64,000 bases of DNA from Naegleria gruberi (lineage: Eukaryota). The translations under genes were made by a program, and so were the position numbers. Location: assembly GCA_000004985.1 (NCBI GenBank), contig GG738878.1, one strand, 5' to 3'. Shown here piece after piece: positions 1 through 62,600 of this stretch. The notes beneath the pieces were generated by a model. That model saw only the letters and a program-made list of their open reading frames with translations, ran no database searches and was not told the origin of the DNA. The first letter of the stretch is position 1, and every line of letters begins with the position of its first letter.

Positions 1-697
1 CCACAACTGCTGCACTGATCATAGCCTGCACTTCCATTGTAATTGTGGTTCCTGTTCTGATTGTGTTTATTGTGTTGAGTGTCAAGAAAGATAATTCGAA
101 AGAGAAACAATTGAGACAAGTGAAGAAATACATGATTATGGACACGATTAATGATCCTTCAGTGGTGGAAAAGTTTAAAGATTTTTGCAAACAAGAGAGA
201 AGTGAAGAGAATTTTGCATTATTGGAAAAGATTAACGAATATAAGAAATTGTGTGAAAGAAGTTTCGATATTCAGGTTTTCTTATTCGATACTGATGTTT
301 TGAGTAGTTCAGATCAATTTTCTGAGATGACTTCGTCGAGTAATGATGATTCTTCCAAGAAGAAGAACAAAGCAAAAAGGGATATACTGAAAAGGATTTA
401 TTGGAAATTGAAAAGAAGAAATTCGAAATTGCATTCGAAATTTATTCAGAATTTTTGGATGTTCGTGGTGATCGTTCAGTGAATATCAGTAAGGCATTTG
501 CTGATAATGTGAAACAACACTTGGATTATTTCGCAAAGGGAGAAAACGAATCCATTCCAGAAAGTTTATTCGAAAGTATTGAATACGAAATGTGTGTCTT
601 GATGATGGACACTCACCACAGATTCAAACAACACTTGGAATTGCAAATGAAAGAAAAGAAACAAATCTTGTCTTCTCTCAAGAAATCCAAAAAGTAA
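1..697 (+). pseudogene. 5'-truncated tandem paralogue of the downstream RGS-domain membrane protein gene, with a -1 frame break near 395
   Basis: nt 1-700 are ~90% identical to 2170-2874. Track ORFs 45..482 and 401..697 lie in different frames. A 1-nt deletion relative to the paralogue occurs at ~385-395 (gcaaaaaggg vs gctaaaaaggg). Copy runs off the window edge. Confidence 0.4.
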
Positions 698-1320
698 ATC
701 TCCACAATTATATTCGAAAGGGTTGTTTACATGTTATTATCACTTGATAAATTCACAGCTTTTGATATCTAAATTACAAGATTCTTGACTACAGGACTGA
801 AGATTAATTGAGTTTATTCGATTCATCTAGTAAGGAGAAAGTGTCAAGCGTTTAGATCCCTTTTGCTAAAAAGTTTATTGGCAACGAAACATTGATTCCT
901 CTCCGAAGAAAATGCTAAAACAAATACTAGTCCGCAAATACAAAATTCAACATGATTCGAATAACTTTTGTATTACTGATTGGACTAATGATTCTAAGAA
1001 ACAATGATTCTCTTGAGTAACAATCACAGCAACGGGTTTTTGATACTACTCAGTGCATCTATTATTTTTCAACACCATTTTCCTTATTAATGTTGCACTT
1101 TCTTTAAATGAGTAATCTTTCTGTTTTAATACGAAAGGTCCTACATCGAAATCTGTCAAATGTTGGAATTTGAATAACTCTATGGTTTCTCTGTATACTT
1201 TCGTGGCAAGACTCTCTTCAATTGATTTCAAAACAAACCATCAGTTGCCACAAACAACCGTTCATATGAAAGATTTCTCATAGTTTCGAAACACATCAAA
1301 ACATCAAAAAAAAACACAAC

Positions 1321-2874
1321 ATGACAGGTACAACAATCGAAATGCTAGATAGTAGTGCTACGAACATTAATACTTCCACAACTAGCTTTTCCTCCAATCA
1401 AATCAACAGAATCAACTCTCCACCTTCAGTCAACCTGACCAGTTTGACCTCTTCACAAGATTCCATGATTCCAACATCACCAACCAATAATTCCAACTCT
1501 ATGAACAGAAGAGATTCCACTCACAAATCCACAACTGGTAAAAGTTTACCATCCTCATTGAAAACACCAAGAACTTCATCTGTTACTGCTTTCCATTCGA
1601 AAAACTTTCGTATACATACATGTTGTGGCATTCTAGAGCTGAATTGCTTGAAAATGACAAGTTTGGCAGCACTTGTTGTTAGTTTATTCGCATTTACTGC
1701 CTTAATTGCAATCATTAGTTTAAACTATTCAGTAGTTGCCACCTATCACTCAAGTTTAGAAACTTTAGAAACTTCTGGAACTTATTACAGAGAATTGATG
1801 AAATTATCTGCACGTGCTGCAGTCACAGCTGATTATAACAGAACCTTGTCATTGGAATATGTCGACTTGTACAATAGTTATTTTAAAGAGTATTATGTAG
1901 TAATGAATAATTTAATTGCAAACGTTCCTCCTTCAGTGCTGTATTGGAATCAACATAACATGTTGAGAGAAAATGTCAAATCAAGAAAAGCTGTCAATAT
2001 GGAAGTTGCCATGATGTCACAAGTCACAAATGGAAATTATACAGCAGCTCTCAGATCCCTCGATTCAGATCAATACAAAGATTTGCTAACAGGTTATGAA
2101 GAAGAAGTTCAAAGTATCATTGATTATGTCGCCGACCTTAAATATTCGAATGCAGAAATGGATTTGGCAACCACAACTGTTGCCTTGATTATTATTTGCA
2201 TTTCTCTGGCAATTGTTATTCCAGTTCTGATTGTATTTGTATTATTGAGTGTTCAGAAAGATAATTCGAAAGAGAAACAATTGAGACAAGTGAAGAAATA
2301 CATGATTATGGATACGATTAATGATCCTTCTGTGGTGGAGAAGTTTAAAGATTTTTGCAAACAAGAGAGAAGTGAAGAAAATTTTGCATTGTTGGAAAAG
2401 ATTAATGAGTATAAGAAATTGTGTGAAAGAAGTTTCGATATTCAGGTTTTCTTATTCGATACTGATGTATTGAGTAGTTCAGATCAATTTTCTGAAACAA
2501 CAACATCCAGTACTGAAGACGCATCCAAGAAGAAGAACAAAGCTAAAAAGGGATATACTGAAAAAGATTTAATGGAAATTGAAAAGAAGAAATTCGAAAT
2601 TGCATTCGAAATTTATTCAGAATTCTTGGATGTTCGTGGTGATCGTTCAGTGAATATCAGCAAGGCATTTGCTGATAATGTGAAACAGCATTTGGATTAT
2701 TTCGCAAAGGGAGAAAATGAATCCATTCCAGAAAGTTTATTCGATAGTGTGGAATACGAAATGTGTGTCTTGATGATGGACACCCACCACAGATTCAAAC
2801 AATTTATGGAAGTTTCCCTCAAGGAAAAGAAACAAATTCTTTCAACATTGAAGAGAAAAACTGTAAAAAAGTAA
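1321..2874 (+). CDS. Receptor-like membrane protein: Ser/Thr-rich N-term, TM1, ~150-aa extracytoplasmic domain, TM2, cytoplasmic C-terminal RGS (regulator of G-protein signalling) domain
   Basis: Single 517-aa ORF. Two hydrophobic helices (LAALVVSLFAFTALIAIISL; ALIIICISLAIVIPVLIVFVLL). C-terminus shows the RGS signature (FCKQERSEENFALLEKINEYKK ... FEIAFEIYSEFL ... VNISKAF ... MDTHHRFKQ). Confidence 0.7.
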   Translation: MTGTTIEMLDSSATNINTSTTSFSSNQINRINSPPSVNLTSLTSSQDSMIPTSPTNNSNSMNRRDSTHKSTTGKSLPSSLKTPRTSSVTAFHSKNFRIHTCCGILELNCLKMTSLAALVVSLFAFTALIAIISLNYSVVATYHSSLETLETSGTYYRELMKLSARAAVTADYNRTLSLEYVDLYNSYFKEYYVVMNNLIANVPPSVLYWNQHNMLRENVKSRKAVNMEVAMMSQVTNGNYTAALRSLDSDQYKDLLTGYEEEVQSIIDYVADLKYSNAEMDLATTTVALIIICISLAIVIPVLIVFVLLSVQKDNSKEKQLRQVKKYMIMDTINDPSVVEKFKDFCKQERSEENFALLEKINEYKKLCERSFDIQVFLFDTDVLSSSDQFSETTTSSTEDASKKKNKAKKGYTEKDLMEIEKKKFEIAFEIYSEFLDVRGDRSVNISKAFADNVKQHLDYFAKGENESIPESLFDSVEYEMCVLMMDTHHRFKQFMEVSLKEKKQILSTLKRKTVKK

Positions 2875-4112: not shown

Positions 4113-6207
4113 ATGTCACTCTCAGAATACGTACGTCGGGAAGATTTAAAAACACTTTATGCTCTTCCTATGAAGGAAGCAAGTAAAAAATTAGGAGTGA
4201 GTGAAAGTAGTTTGAGAAATATTTGTAGAAAACACAACATTGAACGATGGCCATGTATGTAAATTACTTTACAATAATATATTTAATACTATTTAATAAT
4301 ATTTAATAATAATATTTAATAATATTTAAAAATTACAAAAAATAATTGAATCGTTCCAAGATCGTAAATTTCAACAATTAGACGCTCACATTGCCTCATT
4401 GCAAAATGTCGAAGTTTCACAACAATCTCAACAACAAAAAGAAATGATTGAAAGTTTATTAAGAGCTCGATCAATTCTCGAAGATAATCCAAACATGACA
4501 TGTGAAATGGCAATTCTACAAGCTAACAAACAGTTACTGGCCAATAATCCACAAAATGGATCTCAGGTTCAAGAAATGACAGCTCAAATGATGAACATGA
4601 TGAATCAGAATCCATCAATGGATGATGCTTCTCCAACCATTAGTGAAAATTCATCACTTCATCATTCAATGGGTGGTGGTGTTGGTAATAATAATAATAA
4701 TTTGGATAATTCTTCAAATCAAATTCAACGAAGTCCAATGCATCAGCATCATCATCATGGAACAACGTTTGTGCCAAGTTATCCAACTCATGTTACTTCA
4801 CATTTGAGTGCTAGTGCTGCATTGAGTGCAATGGCTAGACGAAAGAAACATCCACAATATGTTTCGAATAATGCAGCTTCGTCTTCTATATTAGATACTT
4901 TGGATCAACAATCTAGATCTACATCCATGTTTTCAGTTCAATCCAATCCAACAATTGAAATTCAACAACCAAATAGATTTACAGATTCTGATGTCATGAA
5001 TCCACAACATCATGCCTATTTGCATCATCAGACAATTCTCAATTCTCATAATCCACATATGAGAAGTGTTTCCTCTGATAATATTTTCCCATCAGCATCG
5101 AATGGAATGATTGGTGTTGGTAATATGCAAGGTAATTCTTCAATGGAAATGATAACAAATATGGGTGAGAGAAGAGGAGCTGTTTCACATAGAGATTCAT
5201 TGGCTTTTGGACAGGGATTTGTGTTGGTCAATCAGGGAAGTGGTGGTTCAGTGATGGACGAATCGAATGAGTCCTCCACCACAGCAAGTGAACAACAATC
5301 AGTTTATTATAATGGTGAACTATCTCCACAACAGCAATACTCTCAACAACAACACAATAATGGAATGATGTTTAATGAGTATCAATTATTGGATCCAAAT
5401 GTGAAATCACGACACATTTCTCTATTGAAACAACAGAGAAGACCACCTCCACAACCACCACGTTCACTCTCCACTTCAACTGCACTCTCACCAATGCCCA
5501 ATTTAAATTCCTCTCCTCAACTGCAGCCACAATATCAATCACCAAATGCCTCCAATAATAGAAGTAGCAATTCCATGATGCAAGATCTTCAAATTAATAA
5601 TAGAAAATTCACATCGACAACGACACCACCTTCCTCCTCACACAATTCATCACTGAGAAGTAGTTCAGCATCTCACACAGATTTTGATTCACCTTTTATA
5701 GATATTATGCAATCAGATCAGGAGGGAGATATTTCAATGGGTGATAATTTCCTTTCTTCACCTTCAATTCTAATTAATAATAGATTATCTGATGATCAAA
5801 ATTCAACTCATCCTTTCCAAAGAACAAGTCAATCTTCACTAACGAGTCAAGTTTCATTGAATAGATATTTACTAGATTCACCTAATCATCACGATTTTGA
5901 TTTTGTTTCAAAACAAGAACAACGTGAGAATAATCATAGAATCTTGGAAGCTTTGAGAATAACACCAACTACACCATCAAATAATTCTGTTGGTAGTAGT
6001 GTTAATAATCTGTATGATCCTCTATTTGATAGTAATGCCTTCTTAAGAGGAAGAACAAGTTCAGTTTCGTCTACTTTCTCAGATGGTATGTCAACTCCAA
6101 TGACTCCAACAGGAGAAGGTGGAAGATTGTCAAATGCATCAAATTTAAGTTTAAGACTTTCACACGGCATGAATTCTGATTTTAATTTTTCCAATAACAA
6201 TTATTAA
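4113..6207 (+). CDS. RWP-RK domain transcription factor with a long Q/N/S-rich low-complexity C-terminal region (2 exons: 4113..4254, 4361..6207)
   Basis: Exon 1 encodes MSLSEYVRREDLKTLYALPMKEASKKLGVSESSLRNICRKHNIERWP. GTATGT donor at 4255 and acceptor ...ccaag at 4360. Splicing restores RWP-Y-RK in frame with track ORF 4399..6207. Confidence 0.8.
4262..4330. repeat. AT microsatellite (aatatttaataat)n inside the RWP-RK gene intron
   Basis: Direct reading: atttaatactatttaataatatttaataataatatttaataatatttaaa. Confidence 0.6.
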
Positions 6208-27968: not shown

Positions 27969-28055
27969 GCGGGGATGAGTTTGGCTGGTGCTGAATGCAG
28001 CCTTCAAAGCTGTAGCTACTGTTCGGTAGAGAGGATCGATTCCTCCTTTCCCGCG
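27969..28055 (+). tRNA. tRNA-Sec: Selenocysteine tRNA (tRNA-Sec, anticodon UCA), 87 nt, 9/4 acceptor/T-stem fold, long variable arm
   Basis: GCGGGGATGAGTTTGGCTGGTGCTGAATGCAGCCTTCAAAGCTGTAGCTACTGTTCGGTAGAGAGGATCGATTCCTCCTTTCCCGCG. The 9-bp acceptor stem has one U:U mismatch. The anticodon loop cUUCAAa reads UCA. The T-arm is a 4-bp stem plus ATCGATT loop. Near-colinear with human tRNA-Sec as recalled from memory. Confidence 0.8.
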
Positions 28056-38689: not shown

Positions 38690-40216
38690 ATGTTGCACGC
38701 TTTCCACAAGCCTCTGCAAGTAAACAGAAATGGAACACAAATATTCCTATTGTTGTGTACAAAAAAGAAGCCGATAGCAACAAGAACGTTCGCGAATACT
38801 TTTATATTGTCCTCGTCGGTTCCTTCTAAAGAGTTGTTGTGGAACAAGAACATTTCCATTGATGATAAAATTAAATTCTACAGAACATTTAAAACAAATA
38901 ATCATGATTTATTGGAAATGATTGACATTTGCTTGCTGGTGGCAAATTGTTGTTCCATGATGAAGAGTGAGAAGGAATTTAAAGAGTGTTTATTGGATTT
39001 AAAAAGTTATTGTTCACAATTAAGCGATCAAACAGAAAAAAAAGTGAATGAAAAATCATGGAATTTTATAATTCAACATTTTTGTAAAGAACAAACATTT
39101 CATTCCTATGCCATTTATCTATTTAAAAGAGTTATGCAAGAGAAACAATTAGCATGTCCCAATTTATTTACATTAACTGCCATACTTAAAGTTTGCTCTG
39201 TAGGTAATACCCAAGTTGAATTTTGTGAACAAATTGTTAATGAATTAGAGCAACATGGCGCAATGAATGTATTTTTATACACTCACTTTATTAATAATTG
39301 TATTTGGAATGATGATTTGGAAAGAGCATTAGCAATTGTGTTGAATATGAAAGGCAAAGATATTGAACCAAACTATGCAATTTATATCCCACTTTTAAAA
39401 GCAGCCACTGTTAAGAAAAACATTCAAGTTGGAATGACACTTTACCAACTTGTAAAAAAGAGTAATTTAGCAAGTCCTCAATTATCAACGACAATTATAT
39501 CATTTGCATTGAAATTAAGAAAACCAGAGTTGGTAATAGAAGAAATTGAATTAGTGAAACAACAAAAATGGATGACAATCATAACATGGAATAGTTTAAT
39601 TCAAGCATATATTCAAGAGAACAATATTAAGAAAGCGATTGATGTTATTCATGAAATGAAAGATAATGGTATTTGTCCAGATTCGGCAACTTTTAACATT
39701 CTCATAACAGCTTGTGCTAATACCAAGTTATTTGCAGAAGGAAAGTTGATTCACAAAATTACAACTAACACTTTGAAAGATAATTGCTCTGTTGAACTAT
39801 TGACATCCATTATTAATTTTTATACAAAATGTGGACATCCAGAGATTGCAATCAACGAATGTGAAAAGATGAAATCAAAGGGATTAATGAATGTTGTTTC
39901 TTTTACATGTCTAGTTGAAGCATACATTCAAATAAATGAAATACAAAAAGCCATCGACACAGTTACTGAAATGAAACAATTCAAGGTTACTCCAAACGCT
40001 ACCACATTCTCCATTTTGCTTACCGCATGCGCTAAGTTGAAATTATATAAGGAGGGAATATTGATTCACAAAATTGCAAATAATACTTTGAGAGATAATA
40101 GCTCTCTTAAACTTTTGACATCAATTATTAATTTTTACACAAAATGTGGACATCCAGATATTGCAATTAATGAATGTAAAAAGATATCAAAAAGTATTAT
40201 GGATGGAATTGTTTAA
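38690..40216 (+). CDS. PPR (pentatricopeptide repeat) protein, N-terminal part with mitochondrial-presequence-like start; frame lost at ~40190 and continues in ORF 40273..43038
   Basis: MLHAFHKPLQVNRNGTQIFLLLCTKKKPIATRTF presequence-like. Then 35-aa PPR motifs (ITWNSLIQAYIQENNIKKAIDVIHEMKDNGICPDSATFNILITACAN...). Ends where a 13-nt deletion relative to sister repeats shifts the frame. Confidence 0.6.
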   Translation: MLHAFHKPLQVNRNGTQIFLLLCTKKKPIATRTFANTFILSSSVPSKELLWNKNISIDDKIKFYRTFKTNNHDLLEMIDICLLVANCCSMMKSEKEFKECLLDLKSYCSQLSDQTEKKVNEKSWNFIIQHFCKEQTFHSYAIYLFKRVMQEKQLACPNLFTLTAILKVCSVGNTQVEFCEQIVNELEQHGAMNVFLYTHFINNCIWNDDLERALAIVLNMKGKDIEPNYAIYIPLLKAATVKKNIQVGMTLYQLVKKSNLASPQLSTTIISFALKLRKPELVIEEIELVKQQKWMTIITWNSLIQAYIQENNIKKAIDVIHEMKDNGICPDSATFNILITACANTKLFAEGKLIHKITTNTLKDNCSVELLTSIINFYTKCGHPEIAINECEKMKSKGLMNVVSFTCLVEAYIQINEIQKAIDTVTEMKQFKVTPNATTFSILLTACAKLKLYKEGILIHKIANNTLRDNSSLKLLTSIINFYTKCGHPDIAINECKKISKSIMDGIV

Positions 40217-41850
40217 TTCAAGCATATATTCAAAATAAGGAAGTTCGACAGGCAATTGAAATAATCACAGAAATGCAAGATTATGGTGTTGAACCAAACT
40301 CTACCACTTTTAACATTTTACTCACAGCGTGTGCTGATTCAAAATTGTTTGAAGAAGGAAAGGCAATTCACAAACTTGCAACTGGCACCTTGAAAGATTA
40401 CTCTTCTGAACTTTTAGCATCTATTGTCAACTTTTACACAAAATGTGGACATCCAGAAACAGCCATTAAGGAATGTGAACAATTGAAATCGAAAGGATTA
40501 ATGAACAATATTGTTTGGAATTGTTTAATTCAAGCATATATTCAAAATAAGGAAGTTCGACAGGCAATTGAAGTAATCACAGAAATGCAAGATTATGGTA
40601 TTGAACCAAACTCTACCACTTTTAACATTTTACTTAAAGCATGTGCTGATTCAAAATTATTTGAAGAAGGTAAATTACTGCATCAAGCATCTGGTCAAGT
40701 GCTCAATAATCCTACAATAGAGTTGAACAATAGTATAATTAATTTTTACACAAAATGCGGACATCCAATAATAGCTATTGATCAATTTGAAAAGATGAAA
40801 ACCAAAGGATTTGAGGCAAATGTTATTACTTGGACGTGTTTAATTCAAGCACACGTTCAAAATAAGGAAGTTCGACAGGCAATTGAAGTAATCACAGAAA
40901 TGCAAGATTACGGTATTGAACCAAACTCTACCACTTTTAACATTTTACTCACAGCGTGTGCTGATTCAAAATTATTTGAAGAAGGTAAATTGATTCACGA
41001 ACAAGCAATAGAAAATGTTAAAGATTGCTCTACTGAACTTTTGACATCAATTATTAATTTTTACACAAAATGTGGACATCCAGAAACTGCCATAAAGGAA
41101 TGTGAAAAATTGAAATTGAAGGGATTAATGAACAATGTTGCTGTTTGGAATTGTTTAATTCAAGCACATATTCAAAACAATGAGGTCCAAAAGGCAATTG
41201 AAATAATCACAGAAATGCAACAATTTGGATTGAACCCTGATTCTACAACCTATACTATTATACTTAAGGCATGTACTGATTCAAACTTGTTTGAAGAAGG
41301 GAAGTTTATTCATGAACAAGCAATAGAAAATGTTAAAGATTGCTCTACTGAACTTTTGACATCAATTATTAGTTTTTATACAAAATGTGGACATCCAGAG
41401 GTGTCAATTGGAGAATGTGAAAAATTACAATCGAAGGGATTAATGAACAACATTGCTGTTTGGAATTGTTTAATTCAAGCACATATTCAAAATAACGAAG
41501 TTCAAAAATCAATTAAAATAATCACAGAAATGCAAGATTATGGTATTGAACCAAACTCTACCACTTTTAACATTTTACTCACAGCGTGTGCTGATTCAAA
41601 ATTATTTGAAGAAGGAAAGGCAATCCACAAACTTGCAACTGGCACCTTGAAAGATTACTCTGCTGAACTTTTAGCATCTATTGTCAACTTTTACACAAAA
41701 TGTGGACATCCAGAGGTTTCAATTGAGGAATGTGAACAATTGAAATCAAAGGGATTAATGAACAATGTTGCTATTTGGAATTGTTTAATTCAAGCACATA
41801 TTCAAAATACAACAAATACCCAAAACCCATCTACAATAGAATATGGACTG
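39590..41850 (+). repeat. Tandem array of ~7-8 near-identical ~315-bp units (each = 3 PPR motifs) inside the PPR-DYW gene
   Basis: Unit boundaries at the recurring string ggaattgtttaattcaagcacatattcaaaat at ~39590, 40205, 40515, 40830, 41145, 41460, 41775. Inter-unit DNA identity visibly >85-90%. Confidence 0.7.
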
Positions 41851-43038
41851 AACAAAGCAATGGTGGTTTTTAATGAGATGAAGGAACATATTGAACCCGA
41901 TAAGATAACCTACCTCATATTGTTGGCTGGATGTGGAGAATATGTTGCGAGAAAGATGGGACTGGATATTATTGATGAACTCAAACTAAAAGGAATGGAT
42001 GTTCATGAGGAGATAGTCAGTGTTATGATCTACTTTTATTCAAGAATTGCTTATCAATCAACTGCACAACAACTATTTGAAAAGCTTGTCGAAGAATCAG
42101 CCCAAAAACGTCTATCCATCATAACATATAATAACATGTTGTCATGTTACGCTCAACATGGAAAAGGAACACAAGCCATGAATTTATTTAATGAAATGGT
42201 TGATAAGAACGTTGAAATGAACGAGCAAACATTCACAATCATGCTGAACACATTTTCACATTGTGGAATGATTGATGAGGCGAATCAACTTTATGGAGAA
42301 ATGAAGACAAAATACAACCATAATCCATCAGTAATTGTAGACTGTGTAATGGTTGATGTCTTTGCCCGTTCAGGAAGATTTCATGAGGCAGAAAAAATAA
42401 TTAACGAAAGAATGAATTATTCTTTGTGGAGTGCTCTACTGGCAGGATGTAGAAAGTTCAATAATGTTGAGCTTGGTGAAAAGGTTTTTAAAATATTGCT
42501 TAGTATTGATGAAAAAAAAGCTCCACCATATATATTATTATCGAACATTTATACTTATTATGGGTTGAATGAAAAAGCTGACAATATAAGACAATTAATG
42601 ATTGAAAATGGAATTAAAAAGATACCAGGAATTGTGTATCAGGAAGAAGATGGTAAATCATACCAATTTGTTTCTGGATCAAAAAAATATGAAAGATTTA
42701 AGGAAATTGAGAAAATGAGAGAGGAGATTTACAGAAAAATAATCCAAGCTGGTTTTGAGCCAGATACTAGATGGGTAACTAACTCAAAATTATTAACTGA
42801 AGAAGAAAAATTAGATTCACTTTGTAGACATGCTGAGAAGACAGCAACAGCTCATGCATTTGTTTTGAATCCAAAGAGAAAATCAATTATTTTAGCGGCA
42901 AATCTTCGTGTTTGCAATGATTGTCATACTGCCACAGAATTCATTTCAAAAGTGATGGATGTTGAAATAATTATTAGAGATGCAAATAGATATCACCATT
43001 TTAAAGATGGTAAATGTAGTTGTGACGGATATTGGTAA
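40273..43038 (+). CDS. PPR-E-DYW protein (plant-type organellar C-to-U RNA editing factor); in-frame coding continues upstream to ~40203, so probably the same gene as 38690..40216
   Basis: ~20 PPR motifs followed by an E domain and canonical DYW deaminase end: HAEKTATAHAFVLNPKRKSIILAANLRVCNDCHTATEFISKVMDVEIIIRDANRYHHFKDGKCSCDGYW. Confidence 0.8.
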   Translation: MQDYGVEPNSTTFNILLTACADSKLFEEGKAIHKLATGTLKDYSSELLASIVNFYTKCGHPETAIKECEQLKSKGLMNNIVWNCLIQAYIQNKEVRQAIEVITEMQDYGIEPNSTTFNILLKACADSKLFEEGKLLHQASGQVLNNPTIELNNSIINFYTKCGHPIIAIDQFEKMKTKGFEANVITWTCLIQAHVQNKEVRQAIEVITEMQDYGIEPNSTTFNILLTACADSKLFEEGKLIHEQAIENVKDCSTELLTSIINFYTKCGHPETAIKECEKLKLKGLMNNVAVWNCLIQAHIQNNEVQKAIEIITEMQQFGLNPDSTTYTIILKACTDSNLFEEGKFIHEQAIENVKDCSTELLTSIISFYTKCGHPEVSIGECEKLQSKGLMNNIAVWNCLIQAHIQNNEVQKSIKIITEMQDYGIEPNSTTFNILLTACADSKLFEEGKAIHKLATGTLKDYSAELLASIVNFYTKCGHPEVSIEECEQLKSKGLMNNVAIWNCLIQAHIQNTTNTQNPSTIEYGLNKAMVVFNEMKEHIEPDKITYLILLAGCGEYVARKMGLDIIDELKLKGMDVHEEIVSVMIYFYSRIAYQSTAQQLFEKLVEESAQKRLSIITYNNMLSCYAQHGKGTQAMNLFNEMVDKNVEMNEQTFTIMLNTFSHCGMIDEANQLYGEMKTKYNHNPSVIVDCVMVDVFARSGRFHEAEKIINERMNYSLWSALLAGCRKFNNVELGEKVFKILLSIDEKKAPPYILLSNIYTYYGLNEKADNIRQLMIENGIKKIPGIVYQEEDGKSYQFVSGSKKYERFKEIEKMREEIYRKIIQAGFEPDTRWVTNSKLLTEEEKLDSLCRHAEKTATAHAFVLNPKRKSIILAANLRVCNDCHTATEFISKVMDVEIIIRDANRYHHFKDGKCSCDGYW

Positions 43039-59136: not shown

Positions 59137-59453
59137 ACACATTTAAAATTTGAAAATCAACCACAGTTTCTGAACTGTACTTATTATCAGATTTATCCCA
59201 TTTCTTATTTTAATATCTTTTATCTTCTCTAAAGAGATCCGTTGCAGCCTTACTTTGAAAATTTCAAAAAAATTAATAAATTAAAAAATGGAGCACAACA
59301 CACAGGTGAAAACACGTGTTTGGTGGCACTCTACTCTATTCAATCTGTATTCCCTGAGACTGGTATTAATCTCCGATATGCTACTTTCAAAATATGGGTG
59401 ATTTGTGAATTATGTCATAGTTGACTCGATGTGTGGTCTTTTTTAAAAACAAA

Positions 59454-62400
59454 ATGAAAAACTGTTATTTTGGTGATATTGTGATTGTGTGTGTTGATGA
59501 AGATGGTGATGGTGATGATCATTATTCGGAGGCTGGATATGAATTATTACAAAACCACTTAGATAGTGTAGCATGGGAAAGAGTGGAGAGGAATGAAAAG
59601 ATTTATGATCATATGGAGAGTCTAATGAAACCCTATATTTGGTCAGGTTTGGAATATATTGAGAAAAATCCATTTCCAGACAATGATTGTAAATTGGTGT
59701 TTTATAGAGTGTTGAAGAAATTTGGAGAGTTATTGGAAATGGCTTCAGATGCTATCAAGTGTGATGAACGGTTGGTTCTTAAGGCTGTTAAAAGTAAACC
59801 TTCCTCTTTGCAATTTGCAAGTTTGGAATTGAGATCAAACAGAGAGTTTGCATTGAAAGTTGTTTCGTTTAAGACTCTTCATAGTGGTTCTCCATTTGAA
59901 TTTTTGGAGAATTTTCATGGTGATTATGAAATAGCATTGTTAGCTGCCAAACAATATGGAATGGCATTGGAGTTTGTTGCACCAAAGTTGAGAAATAACA
60001 GAGATATCATACGTGAAGCAGTGGAAAATAATGGATGTGCACTACAATTTGTCCCTGAACAATTAAAAGATAGAAGCTTAGTATGGAGTGCTTTAGATTC
60101 ATATTGCAAGTTTGAATTTGTACCAAAAGAAATGGAGAATGATAGAGAAATTTTACTTAAAGCTGCCTTACATTCAAATTTGAGCAGAATTCCAGACTTA
60201 TTTCACAGTGACAGAGAATTCGTTCTTGAACTTGTAAAGAGAGATGGATGTTTATTACAACATCTTCCAATAGAGTACCAACAGGATAGATTATTTGTAT
60301 TGGAAGCTGTAAAACGGAACCCTTTTTATTTAGCTGAGGCAAGTGATGAATTTAGAGGTGACAGGGAAATTGCTTTGATTGCTTTTCGGAAAAATCCGGA
60401 TGTATTTCAATATATTTCAAATAACTTGAAAAATGATAGAGATTTCATATCAAGCTTGATATTGAATGGATATGACCTGTATAGATTACAACGGTTTGGT
60501 GTTGCACTAGCCAACGATCGAGATTTCATTTTGAGTGCGATGGATAATTGGCTTGACTTTTCAAATTTTATGGATATGGAAAATACTTACAGGTCAGACC
60601 TGGAATTATGTAAAAAACTTATCAAACTATATCCTGATTGCATACGTTATACACTATGTGAAGAACTGAAACATAACAAAGAATTAGTAATGAGCTTATT
60701 ACCTCATAGTTTGGAAATACTTGAAGACATACCAGACGAGCTGAAGAATGACAGAGAATTTATTCAATACGCATTACGGTTGCATGACAAGTCATTACAG
60801 TATGCGTCGGACGAGCTGAAGAATGATAGAAGTTTGGTAATGGAAGCCATAAAATACGATAGCAATAACTTTATCTTTGCTTCTGACGAATTGAAAAATG
60901 ACAGACAAATTGTAGACTATATTATTCTTCAAAATGCATCTTTAATTGAATTTGCCTCCAAGTCCATTAGAAATGAAAGAGAAATTGTATTGAAAGCTAT
61001 CAAAAATTCATTTACTGATATTTCTCAATTTTTAGGTTATGAAATTATGGAAGAAAGAGAAATAGTCTTGGAGTGTGCTAAAAGGTTTGGAGGTTTGGAG
61101 CATCTTATAACCGAGTTTAGAAATGATAGAGAAATTGTTCGACATGTTATTCAAAATAATAAGGGTGAACAGCTTACTTATGCATCTGAACATTTACGCA
61201 AGGATCGAGAAATGGAGCTAATTGCAGTAAGGAATGGGCTGAGTTTGAAGTATGTCCATAACAAAATAGACAGGGAAATTGTATATGCTGCCGTAAATCA
61301 CTATGAAAGAAACGTTAAATATATACCAGATGAATTCATGAATGATGAGGAAATTATCTTACTATCTGCTAATTATCGTAATTGTTTAGATTACACTGGA
61401 GAACAATTGAAATCAAATAAGGAATTTATTAGAAAATTGATTTCAAAAAATGGTTGTTTATTATCAGATGTAGCAAGTGAGCTGAAGGATGATAAAGAAG
61501 TTGTGATGGATGCTGTGACTTCAAATGGCTTATCACTACAGTTTGCTTCACAATCAATGAAAGAGGATAAGGAAATTGTTTTGTCAGCTGTAAAATCCGA
61601 TGGACAAGCTCTGTCCCACGCCCCTGATCATTTTAAAAATGATAGAGAAATGATAATTTCTGCAGTTGATCATGGGTTTGCGGAATTTGATCATGATTAC
61701 ACTGCAGATAGAGAAATAGCACTAAAGGTAGTGAATAGGGATATTTTTTATTTCGAATACACAAAGGAACTGAGAATGGATAGAGATTTCATATTACAAA
61801 TAGAAAATCCAAATTTCTCCCTTTTATCAATTTCCCCTAAATTAAGAAATGATAGAGAAATAGCTTTTAAGGCGTTGGACATGGATGGGAATGCTTTATT
61901 GTACGTCTCTGACGAGTTGAAGAATGAATTTAAAAACGATCGAGAAGTATTGTTAAGAGCAATTGGAACTAATCAAATAGCATTTGTTTGTGCCTCAGTT
62001 GAGTTGCAAAATGATGAAAAGTTTGTATTAGATTCGGTCTCAGTGAATGGAATGGTATTGAGATATTTACCACTCAAATTCAAGGATAATAGACAAGTTA
62101 TTTTGAAAGCTGTTCAAAATAATGGTTGGGCACTCTTTTACGCACCATCAGAATTACTTCAGGATAGAGAAATAGTAATGAATGCCATAAAGAATACTGG
62201 TACTTCATTGGAATATGCTCCTTTCGAATTTAGAAACGATAAGGAAATTGTTTTAGAGGCAATTAAAACCAATGTGGAATCTTTACAATCGGCTTCATAT
62301 GAATTACGGAATGATGAGGAATTTATTTCACAAGCTATGGATATTGATATTGAATCTCTTCAATATGCCAATTATTCACTGAGATATAATATTGATTTTC

Positions 62401-62600
62401 TTACAAGAATGAATAAGGAAAATAGGATTATTCAAGGAGCATCAGAACAGTTACAAAAAGTTATTGACATGAATGGATTACTACAACAATTCAAGCAGGA
62501 GACAACTAGCAAAATCTACAACTTCAATCCCATTACTTTATGGACAATTTCAATTTTATTAGTGGCTTTATGTTGTGGAATCAAATTATATAATATTTGA
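59454..62600 (+). CDS. Tail-anchored protein made of ~30 tandem ~30-aa DUF4116-like repeats (LKNDREIVLxAVKxNGxALQYAS)
   Basis: Repeats such as ELKNDREFIQYALRLHDKSLQYASDELKNDRSLVMEAIKYDSNNFIFASDELKNDRQIV. Single C-terminal TM ITLWTISILLVALCCGIKLY. Start taken as first ATG (MKNCYFGD). Track ORF begins at alternative start 59421. Confidence 0.55.
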   Translation: MKNCYFGDIVIVCVDEDGDGDDHYSEAGYELLQNHLDSVAWERVERNEKIYDHMESLMKPYIWSGLEYIEKNPFPDNDCKLVFYRVLKKFGELLEMASDAIKCDERLVLKAVKSKPSSLQFASLELRSNREFALKVVSFKTLHSGSPFEFLENFHGDYEIALLAAKQYGMALEFVAPKLRNNRDIIREAVENNGCALQFVPEQLKDRSLVWSALDSYCKFEFVPKEMENDREILLKAALHSNLSRIPDLFHSDREFVLELVKRDGCLLQHLPIEYQQDRLFVLEAVKRNPFYLAEASDEFRGDREIALIAFRKNPDVFQYISNNLKNDRDFISSLILNGYDLYRLQRFGVALANDRDFILSAMDNWLDFSNFMDMENTYRSDLELCKKLIKLYPDCIRYTLCEELKHNKELVMSLLPHSLEILEDIPDELKNDREFIQYALRLHDKSLQYASDELKNDRSLVMEAIKYDSNNFIFASDELKNDRQIVDYIILQNASLIEFASKSIRNEREIVLKAIKNSFTDISQFLGYEIMEEREIVLECAKRFGGLEHLITEFRNDREIVRHVIQNNKGEQLTYASEHLRKDREMELIAVRNGLSLKYVHNKIDREIVYAAVNHYERNVKYIPDEFMNDEEIILLSANYRNCLDYTGEQLKSNKEFIRKLISKNGCLLSDVASELKDDKEVVMDAVTSNGLSLQFASQSMKEDKEIVLSAVKSDGQALSHAPDHFKNDREMIISAVDHGFAEFDHDYTADREIALKVVNRDIFYFEYTKELRMDRDFILQIENPNFSLLSISPKLRNDREIAFKALDMDGNALLYVSDELKNEFKNDREVLLRAIGTNQIAFVCASVELQNDEKFVLDSVSVNGMVLRYLPLKFKDNRQVILKAVQNNGWALFYAPSELLQDREIVMNAIKNTGTSLEYAPFEFRNDKEIVLEAIKTNVESLQSASYELRNDEEFISQAMDIDIESLQYANYSLRYNIDFLTRMNKENRIIQGASEQLQKVIDMNGLLQQFKQETTSKIYNFNPITLWTISILLVALCCGIKLYNI

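Follow-up and report, generated by a model that had tools for sequence, protein, structure and literature searches.

At the start of a 64-kb stretch of Naegleria gruberi DNA (GenBank assembly GCA_000004985.1, contig GG738878.1; this whole stretch is called the window below), two adjacent paralogous genes encode what we take, with moderate confidence, to be receptor-like RGS proteins, in which an outward-facing sensor of the bacterial four-helix type would be joined to an inward-facing RGS domain and the whole would work as a receptor GTPase-activating protein (receptor-GAP). The window is AT-rich (about 33% GC) and eukaryotic. The downstream paralogue is an intact, intron-free reading frame (1321–2874, + strand) whose 517-aa product matches a public N. 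gruberi “predicted protein” (P0001) at 100% identity. The upstream paralogue is present as its 3′ part only (1–697, +; TAA stop at 695–697), as the window opens at the extracellular end of its second transmembrane (TM) segment; it corresponds to P0002 (504 aa; XP_002675336.1, NAEGRDRAFT_69386). P0001 and P0002 are encoded on one 395-kb N. gruberi scaffold and share 77% identity. Both genes are already public as uncharacterised proteins; the new part is the interpretation, a receptor-RGS theme with a bacterial-type sensor.

Domain architecture and membrane topology

The intact protein contains two strong hydrophobic segments, at aa ~113–134 and ~286–309, that lie about 151 aa apart. Its plan of cytosolic tail, TM1, helical ectodomain of about 150 aa, TM2 and RGS domain is shared by all 15 of the 15 close homologues that we aligned, a set drawn from N. 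gruberi, N. lovaniensis, N. fowleri and environmental assemblies. The loop between TM1 and TM2 measures 141–156 aa in the 14 homologues that were parsed cleanly, and the fifteenth (P0009) shows the same module in the alignment. In window coordinates (all on the + strand), the cytosolic N-terminal region (aa 1–112) spans 1321–1656, TM1 (aa 113–134) 1657–1722, the ectodomain (aa 135–285) 1723–2175, TM2 (aa 286–309) 2176–2247 and the RGS domain (aa 333–492, by its Pfam limits) 2317–2796. Kyte-Doolittle hydropathy peaks at 2.6 in TM1, which lies in a predicted helix of residues 109–147, and at 3.4 in TM2, which runs on from the last ectodomain helix (residues 250–311).

The N-terminal region of the intact protein is S/T-rich and predicted to be disordered, with a predicted local distance difference test (pLDDT) score below 50 to about residue 107. 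Across the 15 homologues it is variable and S/T-rich at first, continues with a conserved KTPR.SSVT motif and ends beside TM1 in a Cys-rich β-hairpin with the consensus TCCG..EL.C.K, in which the strands are formed by residues 96–100 and 103–107 and in which T100, C101 and G103 are nearly invariant. This hairpin (aa 96–112, window 1606–1656) lies on the cytosolic side, is found in all paralogues and is absent from the bacterial homologues described below; one possibility is that it serves, in the eukaryotic family only, for S-acylation or metal binding.

The orientation of the protein is suggested by charge and by glycosylation signals. Most of the 15 homologues have four to five K/R residues among the 15 residues after TM2 and zero to two before it, an excess that fits the positive-inside rule, and the loop carries conserved N-x-S/T sequons (e.g., GNYS/T), which would suit a loop that is lumenal or extracellular. 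On this basis the loop would be on the non-cytoplasmic side of the membrane. An AlphaFold model (AF2, from the 15-sequence alignment) gives an all-helical ectodomain at pLDDT 80–95, with TM1 and TM2 merging into the first and last helices of the bundle. The first-pass annotation of this DNA, made from the sequence alone, had proposed a TM1, ectodomain, TM2 and cytosolic RGS topology; the order is kept in 15 of 15 homologues with positive-inside charges, and the ectodomain, which that annotation had wished to see modelled, is predicted as folded and helical, not disordered.

Homology of the ectodomain to a bacterial sensor domain

At the level of sequence profiles, we could show that the ectodomain shares homology with a periplasmic sensor domain, itself without annotation, that occurs in bacterial PAS/GAF histidine kinases and in GGDEF and STAS proteins. 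When 1.84 billion cluster representatives were searched with a profile of the module, 94 proteins were retrieved, many of which are TM-loop-TM-RGS paralogues; in the tail of the search (E 1e-8 to 1e-4), the matches are to the N-termini of TM-sensor-TM proteins with PAS, GAF, HisKA, HATPase_c and receiver domains, and further sensor-bearing matches carry GGDEF or STAS outputs. Among the bacterial matches, one (MCX6170343.1) is annotated as part of an Ignavibacteriales metagenome-assembled genome, on a contig of 2.5 Mb, and a second is carried by a contig of 2.8 Mb.

Two comparisons from which the TM segments had been removed support this relationship. A TM-free hidden Markov model (HMM) built from Naegleria sequences only scores the bacterial proteins at 24–41 bits, with a best E-value of 1.4e-5 at library size. 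In a TM-free HHalign comparison of the Naegleria ectodomain with 25 bacterial sensor regions, the probability is 98.2% (E 3e-14) over 126 collinear columns with an identity of about 21%, with the conserved S-A-R, E, A, S, Y and Y positions falling in the same columns; reversed, column-shuffled and 7-residue block-shuffled controls score 7–24, compared with 85 for the real alignment. We had considered false homology driven by the TM segments or by composition, and this was rejected by the TM-free HMM, the HHalign result and the shuffled controls.

The bacterial domain can be summarized by the motif Y.DEVLTMSARMAA.TGD..WE.RY..FEPQLD.AIK...P....TD.AN.KLVAME..AF.LV..G....A..LL.S.EY..QK..Y. From its invariant set, Naegleria, whose conserved ectodomain residues are S163-A164-R165, E228, A243, S249, Y252 and Y259, retains S-A-R, E(86), A(101), S(107), Y(110) and Y(117), but it has an invariant R in place of D23 and lacks W41, R44 and K114. 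The predicted fold points the same way. It is closest to the ligand-binding domains of four-helix-bundle (4HB) chemoreceptors, Foldseek gives matches to MCP2201, Vc1313 and NarQ with weak E-values, and the predicted bundle is superposable on solved ligand-binding domains. By itself the fold evidence for a 4HB sensor would be suggestive and not decisive, and it is the sequence evidence that decides. The first-pass annotation had called the ectodomain bacterial-chemoreceptor-like; since the TM-free comparison connects it to the periplasmic sensors of histidine kinases, the likeness is one of homology and goes beyond analogy.

The Naegleria proteins and the unnamed bacterial sensors thus have in common a homologous ectodomain and its location between two TM segments, and differ in that the Naegleria proteins add N-glycosylation sequons, the cytosolic TCCG hairpin and an RGS output. 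A TM1, an all-α loop of about 150 aa and a TM2 are also found in the bacterial 4HB receptors (Tar/Tsr, MCP2201, Vc1313, PcaY, NarX/NarQ, TorS and the HK9 sensor). In contrast to these receptors, TM2 is followed here, after about 12 residues, by a eukaryotic RGS domain without a HAMP or coiled-coil transmitter.

The bacterial domain is well conserved. It is common to histidine kinases, GGDEF and STAS proteins (P0060, P0065, P0071, P0084 and P0096, among others) and is doubled in tandem in P0068, P0087, P0100 and P0104. The bacterial sensor region matches no Pfam family up to an E-value of 10, its profile has no match among Protein Data Bank (PDB) sequences, and NCBIfam gives no sensor-region match for the bacterial proteins or for the whole Naegleria protein.

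The RGS domain

In the intact protein, the C-terminal domain matches Pfam RGS (PF00615, aa 333–492) with a score of 33.1 bits (E 8.4e-8; gathering cut-off 23.9), the match being split by an insert of about 30–55 aa. The RGS blocks of the AF2 model have pLDDT values of 81–92 and match SNX13, RGS4, RGS8 and RGS16 with a Foldseek probability of 1.0 and TM-scores (target) of 0.64–0.78; the RGS4, RGS8 and RGS16 matches are structures in Gα complexes. The disordered part of the insert, between helices α4 and α5, comprises aa 382–409 (2464–2547, +; pLDDT <50). The insert is specific to the family and has a conserved KKKNK.KKG motif at its end. Helix α1 (QVKKY; EVKKW in RGS4) probably begins at about aa 323, some 12 residues past TM2, which would hold the domain tight against the membrane.

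RGS4 contacts Gα through S85/E87/N88, N128 and D163/R167. The equivalents in the intact protein are S351/E353/N354, N445 and D487/R491, and E352 is also listed as a Gα contact. S351, N354, N445, D487 and R491 are invariant in the 15 homologues, as is E349, and alignments to RGS10 and RGS4 put the SEEN motif and the catalytic Asn in register. Judged from these alignments, the domain is shown to keep the residues that canonical RGS proteins use to stabilise the Gα transition state. That the protein ends in an RGS domain instead of a kinase or methyl-accepting chemotaxis protein (MCP) module, as proposed at first reading, is therefore borne out by the Pfam score, the fold and the conserved Gα contacts.

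Proposed function as a receptor-GAP

By analogy with AtRGS1 and the Naegleria 7TM-RGS proteins, the most likely function of this architecture is that of a receptor-GAP, and its regulation by a ligand is plausible. As in bacterial 4HB receptors, the ectodomain would dimerise and bind a ligand; binding would move TM2 and thereby change where the RGS domain, on its short tether, sits or how accessible it is, which in turn would raise or lower GTP hydrolysis on lipid-anchored, membrane-bound Gα. Alternatively, the proteins could act as AtRGS1 does, through ligand-triggered phosphorylation of the S/T-rich tails and internalisation. Control of GTP hydrolysis would be a sensible point of regulation because some Naegleria Gα subunits are self-activating: N. 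fowleri has self-activating Gα subunits, 28 seven-transmembrane (7TM) RGS proteins and 79 other RGS proteins, and the isolated 7TM-RGS domains are selective GAPs (PMC9283941). Among the paralogues, the ectodomain has diverged much faster than the RGS domain, which fits a diversifying ligand specificity.

Several points weigh against the receptor-GAP reading. We infer that the proteins act as GAPs, bind a ligand, dimerise and reach the cell surface. The ectodomain could face an organelle lumen instead of the cell exterior, and TM2 is not connected to the RGS domain by a HAMP or signalling-helix module in either the Pfam results or the AF2 model, so that transmission of a signal to this domain would be without direct precedent. 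The ectodomain matches no Pfam family up to an E-value of 1, including 4HB_MCP, CHASE3 and TarH. The bacterial sequences used in HHalign had been picked by the Naegleria profile, a selection bias that is partly answered by the library-wide E-values. Finally, the direction of transfer, by which the sensor module would be bacterial in origin, is presumed.

The most serious competing explanation is a constitutive membrane-anchored GAP, in which the TM segments and loop anchor, dimerise or sort the RGS domain with no control by a ligand. RGS domains fused to at least one TM segment occur in most eukaryotic lineages, with various numbers of TM segments and without a known ligand (PMC3971589), and the missing HAMP-like transmitter beyond TM2 would be expected of such a protein. 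We consider it unlikely, given that the loop is conserved, well folded and homologous to a sensor that precedes kinase, GGDEF or STAS outputs in bacteria, and that the ectodomain has diversified more across the family (41–79% identity) than the RGS domain (65–99%), as is to be expected of receptors that gain new specificities. It is more improbable still that the RGS domain is not a GAP and instead binds Gα (or another partner) as a scaffold or effector that signals downstream, like those of GRKs, axin and some sorting nexins: the SNX13 RGS domain tops the Foldseek list for the full model, the insert of about 30 residues is unusual and similarity to canonical RGS domains is low (PDB phmmer E ~0.003–0.03), yet the classical Gα-contact positions are all invariant or nearly so across the family, and in RGS4-Gi structures the α4–α5 loop faces away from Gα.

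To our knowledge, receptor-GAPs have so far been essentially 7TM-RGS proteins; they are the proposed ancestral control of self-activating Gα in plants and many protists. Like the proteins described here, 7TM-RGS proteins (AtRGS1, the 28 of N. fowleri and those of Trichomonas) combine a membrane receptor-like module with a C-terminal cytosolic RGS domain, and they are borne by organisms with self-activating Gα subunits. They differ from the Naegleria proteins in the number of TM segments, which is two and not seven in every homologue, in agreement with the AF2 secondary structure, and in the sensing part, which is a heptahelical bundle or N-terminal EGF, lectin or GPS modules in the former and a 150-aa four-helix ectodomain in the latter; homology between the two groups is limited to the RGS domain. 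The sorting nexins SNX13, SNX14 and SNX25 (PXA-RGS-PX-PXC) also have two N-terminal TM segments followed by a cytosolic RGS domain, that of SNX13 being the top Foldseek match. Their TM segments form a short hairpin without a folded lumenal domain, however, and their PXA, PX and PXC domains are absent from the Naegleria proteins according to Pfam.

Family range and evolutionary origin

Of the clusters recovered at 50% identity, about 65 combine the sensor module with an RGS domain. Members with a species name belong to N. gruberi (at least nine), N. lovaniensis, N. fowleri and Willaertia magna, and by name the family is so far known only from the heterolobosean genera Naegleria and Willaertia. 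A full-text literature search found no paper that links RGS to a four-helix or histidine-kinase-type sensor or that describes the two-TM, 4HB-sensor class; it did not cover the survey most likely to mention such architectures, Anantharaman et al. (2011, Gene 475:63).

A broader scenario, which we put forward tentatively, is that the Naegleria/Willaertia lineage captured a bacterial periplasmic four-helix sensor, wired it to an RGS domain and so gained an expanding set of non-heptahelical, ligand-gated receptor-GAPs for self-activating Gα subunits. If this were true, the input side of G-protein signalling would be modular and open to horizontally acquired sensor domains, and a pathway found only in eukaryotes would receive chemical signals from the environment through a chemoreceptor front end of prokaryotic style. 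The system would also be tractable, with soluble ectodomains that could be screened for ligands, as is routine for bacterial chemoreceptors, and candidate surface receptors would be added for the genus of the pathogen N. fowleri. Apart from this, our analysis draws attention to a sensor domain of bacterial histidine kinases that lacks annotation and, as set out below, a public gene model that masks a frameshift with a 20-nt intron.

Some matches fall outside the common architecture. P0079 and P0093, both short fragments, have the bacterial-type form of the sensor with one TM segment followed by a more canonical RGS domain; in P0072 the sensor, closer to the bacterial form, is joined to a class-3 cyclase, and P0062 belongs to the same group (JGI, Logan and EukProt fragments). 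These eukaryote-looking fragments hint at sensor-RGS fusion beyond Naegleria and Willaertia; a search that started from P0093 brought up no relatives with a species name. P0024 (W. magna KAL9656166.1, 1302 aa) has a TM-sensor-TM-RGS arrangement, a second membrane module and a long C-terminus without Pfam matches; either the gene model is a fusion or the architecture is a larger one.

Age of the duplication and mosaic similarity of the two copies

The first-pass annotation had described the upstream copy as truncated by the window edge and about 90% identical to the downstream copy over some 700 bp. Both statements hold for the DNA: two direct repeats of 300 nt (1–300 with 2171–2470, and 374–673 with 2545–2844) are ungapped, 90–91% identical and offset from each other by one base, and a gapped nucleotide alignment of the copies is 92% identical over about 700 nt with one internal gap. 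The figure of about 90% reflects only the RGS-coding segments, which are unusually similar within the pair. At the amino acid level, the tandem pair is 62% identical in the N-terminus, 73% in TM1, 71% in the ectodomain and 69% in TM2, then 99% in the N-terminal half of the RGS domain, 71% in its insert, 96% in its C-terminal half and 52% in the tail. The alignment collapses past the stop codon, and the 3′ flanks cannot be aligned.

Rates of synonymous substitution (dS) follow the same steps, at 0.19–0.27 in the RGS segments and 0.9–2.2 in the adjoining ones (0.9 in TM2, about 2 in the insert). Other paralogue pairs have ectodomains that are closer (77–79%) and yet RGS halves that are less alike (84–92%). 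The duplication was at first thought to be recent, a view that does not agree with an ectodomain identity of 71%, a tail identity of 52%, the overall identity of the proteins and the unalignable 3′ flanks; read from these comparisons, it is old. The step in dS and identity at the RGS-coding segments suggests that these have probably been homogenised by gene conversion, the DNA of the upstream ectodomain lying outside the window.

A spacer (698–1320) that is unlike the 3′ flank of the downstream copy separates the paralogues. It contains a minus-strand, non-repetitive open reading frame (ORF) of 61 aa (1046–1231) that has no Pfam match and may be due to chance. No third copy of the RGS gene was found by tblastn in the 64-kb window. 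In themselves, a tandem duplication and a frameshift are ordinary.

A frameshift in the upstream copy

Within the window, the upstream paralogue can be read on the + strand from its TM2 (TTAALIIACTSIVIVVPVLIVFIVLS; 3–80, frame 3), which shows 27% nucleotide divergence from the downstream copy, through the juxtamembrane linker and the N-terminal RGS half (helices α1–α4; 81–323, frame 3), to the C-terminal RGS half (α5–α9), basic tail and stop codon (377–697, frame 2). The change of frame is caused by a single missing base at an A-run between positions 373 and 374, where the upstream copy reads AAAGC-AAAAAGG and the downstream copy AAAGCTAAAAAGG; in the alignment, the gap in GC-AAAAAGG stands opposite GCTAAAAAGG at 2542–2552. 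TM2 and the first RGS half are thereby left in frame 3 and the second half in frame 2, and since frame 3 stops at 480–482, the genomic reading frame is disrupted. The 1-nt deletion noted in the first-pass annotation is thus real in the alignment, as its one gap, but it had been placed before the RGS domain and in fact falls in the middle of it, at the codon of A408 of the intact copy, in the low-confidence, S/T/K-rich α4–α5 insert of about 30 residues.

On both sides of the gap the sequence fits the family and remains under purifying selection. The frame-3 reading ahead of it, ending in SEMTSSSNDDSSKKKNKAK, matches the family consensus SS..D.SKKKNK.KKG, and the frame-2 continuation KGYTEKDLLEIEKKK likewise follows the consensus. 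One A added to the run GCAAAAAGG restores N-K-A-K-K-G-Y, and either an extra A or a −1 slip yields the family-like NKAKKGYTEKDL. In the N-terminal RGS half, the two copies differ by 10 nt in 243 and by 1 aa (ratio of nonsynonymous to synonymous rates, dN/dS, 0.018); in the RGS core after the shift there are 11 nt differences, with seven codons changed synonymously only and three nonsynonymously (dN/dS 0.087). When polarised by seven other paralogues, the 85 codons of this core contain no derived replacement in the upstream lineage and two in the downstream lineage; the same count gives 5 versus 2 in the tail, which is poorly conserved family-wide. No second lesion is present in the 231 visible upstream codons. 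The upstream copy is therefore not an old pseudogene, and the earlier suggestion that it is decaying is contradicted by the low dN/dS and the absence of derived replacements in the RGS core beyond the shift.

As constraint is the same before and after it, the lesion must have arisen extremely recently or be spurious. We lean, at somewhat better than an even chance, towards a very young inactivating mutation that is possibly allele-specific. Only a little short of an even chance goes to the explanation that the upstream copy is an intact, ordinary gene from which the base was dropped in error during assembly or consensus calling, or is absent in one haplotype only. The location of the gap at an A-run, the exact fit of both frames to the family consensus, the low dN/dS after the shift without derived replacements in the core and the lack of a second lesion all agree with an intact gene. 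Against an assembly error stands the public assembly itself, which we take to be Sanger-based: a one-base error in a run of 5–6 nt is uncommon in Sanger reads. Nor did we find an independent sequence of the gene: the sequence cluster of XP_002675336.1 has a single member, and a search with the “repaired” C-terminus returned only three distant paralogues and missed even known copies.

The public gene model bridges the lesion with an intron. Removal of 340–359 (20 nt, GT..AG, +) from window positions 3–697 reproduces the C-terminus of P0002 exactly, and no other excision does so. The excised stretch encodes the family-conserved SS..D.SKKKNK residues, and its loss creates KEEQS, a sequence seen in no paralogue. 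An authentic intron in the same window, 4255–4360 (GTATGT...CCAAG), measures 106 nt, and its removal completes the RWP-YRK motif of the neighbouring RWP-RK gene. For these reasons, the annotated 20-nt intron is almost certainly not real and is an annotation device that restores the frame. It is very improbable that a real intron at 340–359 allows expression of the upstream copy in its annotated form, or that the A-run does so by programmed −1 frameshifting or by transcriptional slippage: the GT..AG ends, a 3′ end (TTCCAAG) resembling that of the authentic intron and a −1 slip on GCA-AAA-AGG that would yield the consensus protein are set against a length far below 106 nt that would not accommodate a branch site, the loss of the conserved SSNDDSSKKKNK with the gain of non-consensus KEEQS, the absence of an intron or shift at this position from every paralogue, and a site at which we identified no stimulatory structure or canonical slippery heptamer. 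We rejected both mechanisms on the loss of conserved residues, the intron size and the comparison of paralogues.

Other features of the window

We found no functional tie between the RGS genes and their neighbours in the window, which encode RWP-RK, PB1, kinase, CitMHS, SBDS, actin and WD40 proteins and, as further unrelated neighbours, FERM, PPR, peptidase, ABC, methyltransferase and DUF4116 proteins. The RWP-RK transcription-factor gene (4113–6207, +) encodes a protein that is otherwise long and Q/N/S-rich. A selenocysteine tRNA with a TCA anticodon (27969–28055, +) was predicted by ARAGORN and matches Rfam RF01852 with 69.8 bits against a gathering cut-off of 47; it is flanked by an actin-family gene and by a 649-aa ORF without a Pfam match. 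DYW-type RNA-editing factors are unusual outside plants and have been reported in Naegleria, and the window contains a plant-type PPR gene (40273–43038, +) whose product has an E motif and ends in a DYW deaminase domain (PF14432, E 3e-33); the gene is immediately preceded by a second PPR gene (38690–40216, +). A 1059-aa ORF at 59421–62600 (+) consists of 17 DUF4116 repeats (E 2e-204).

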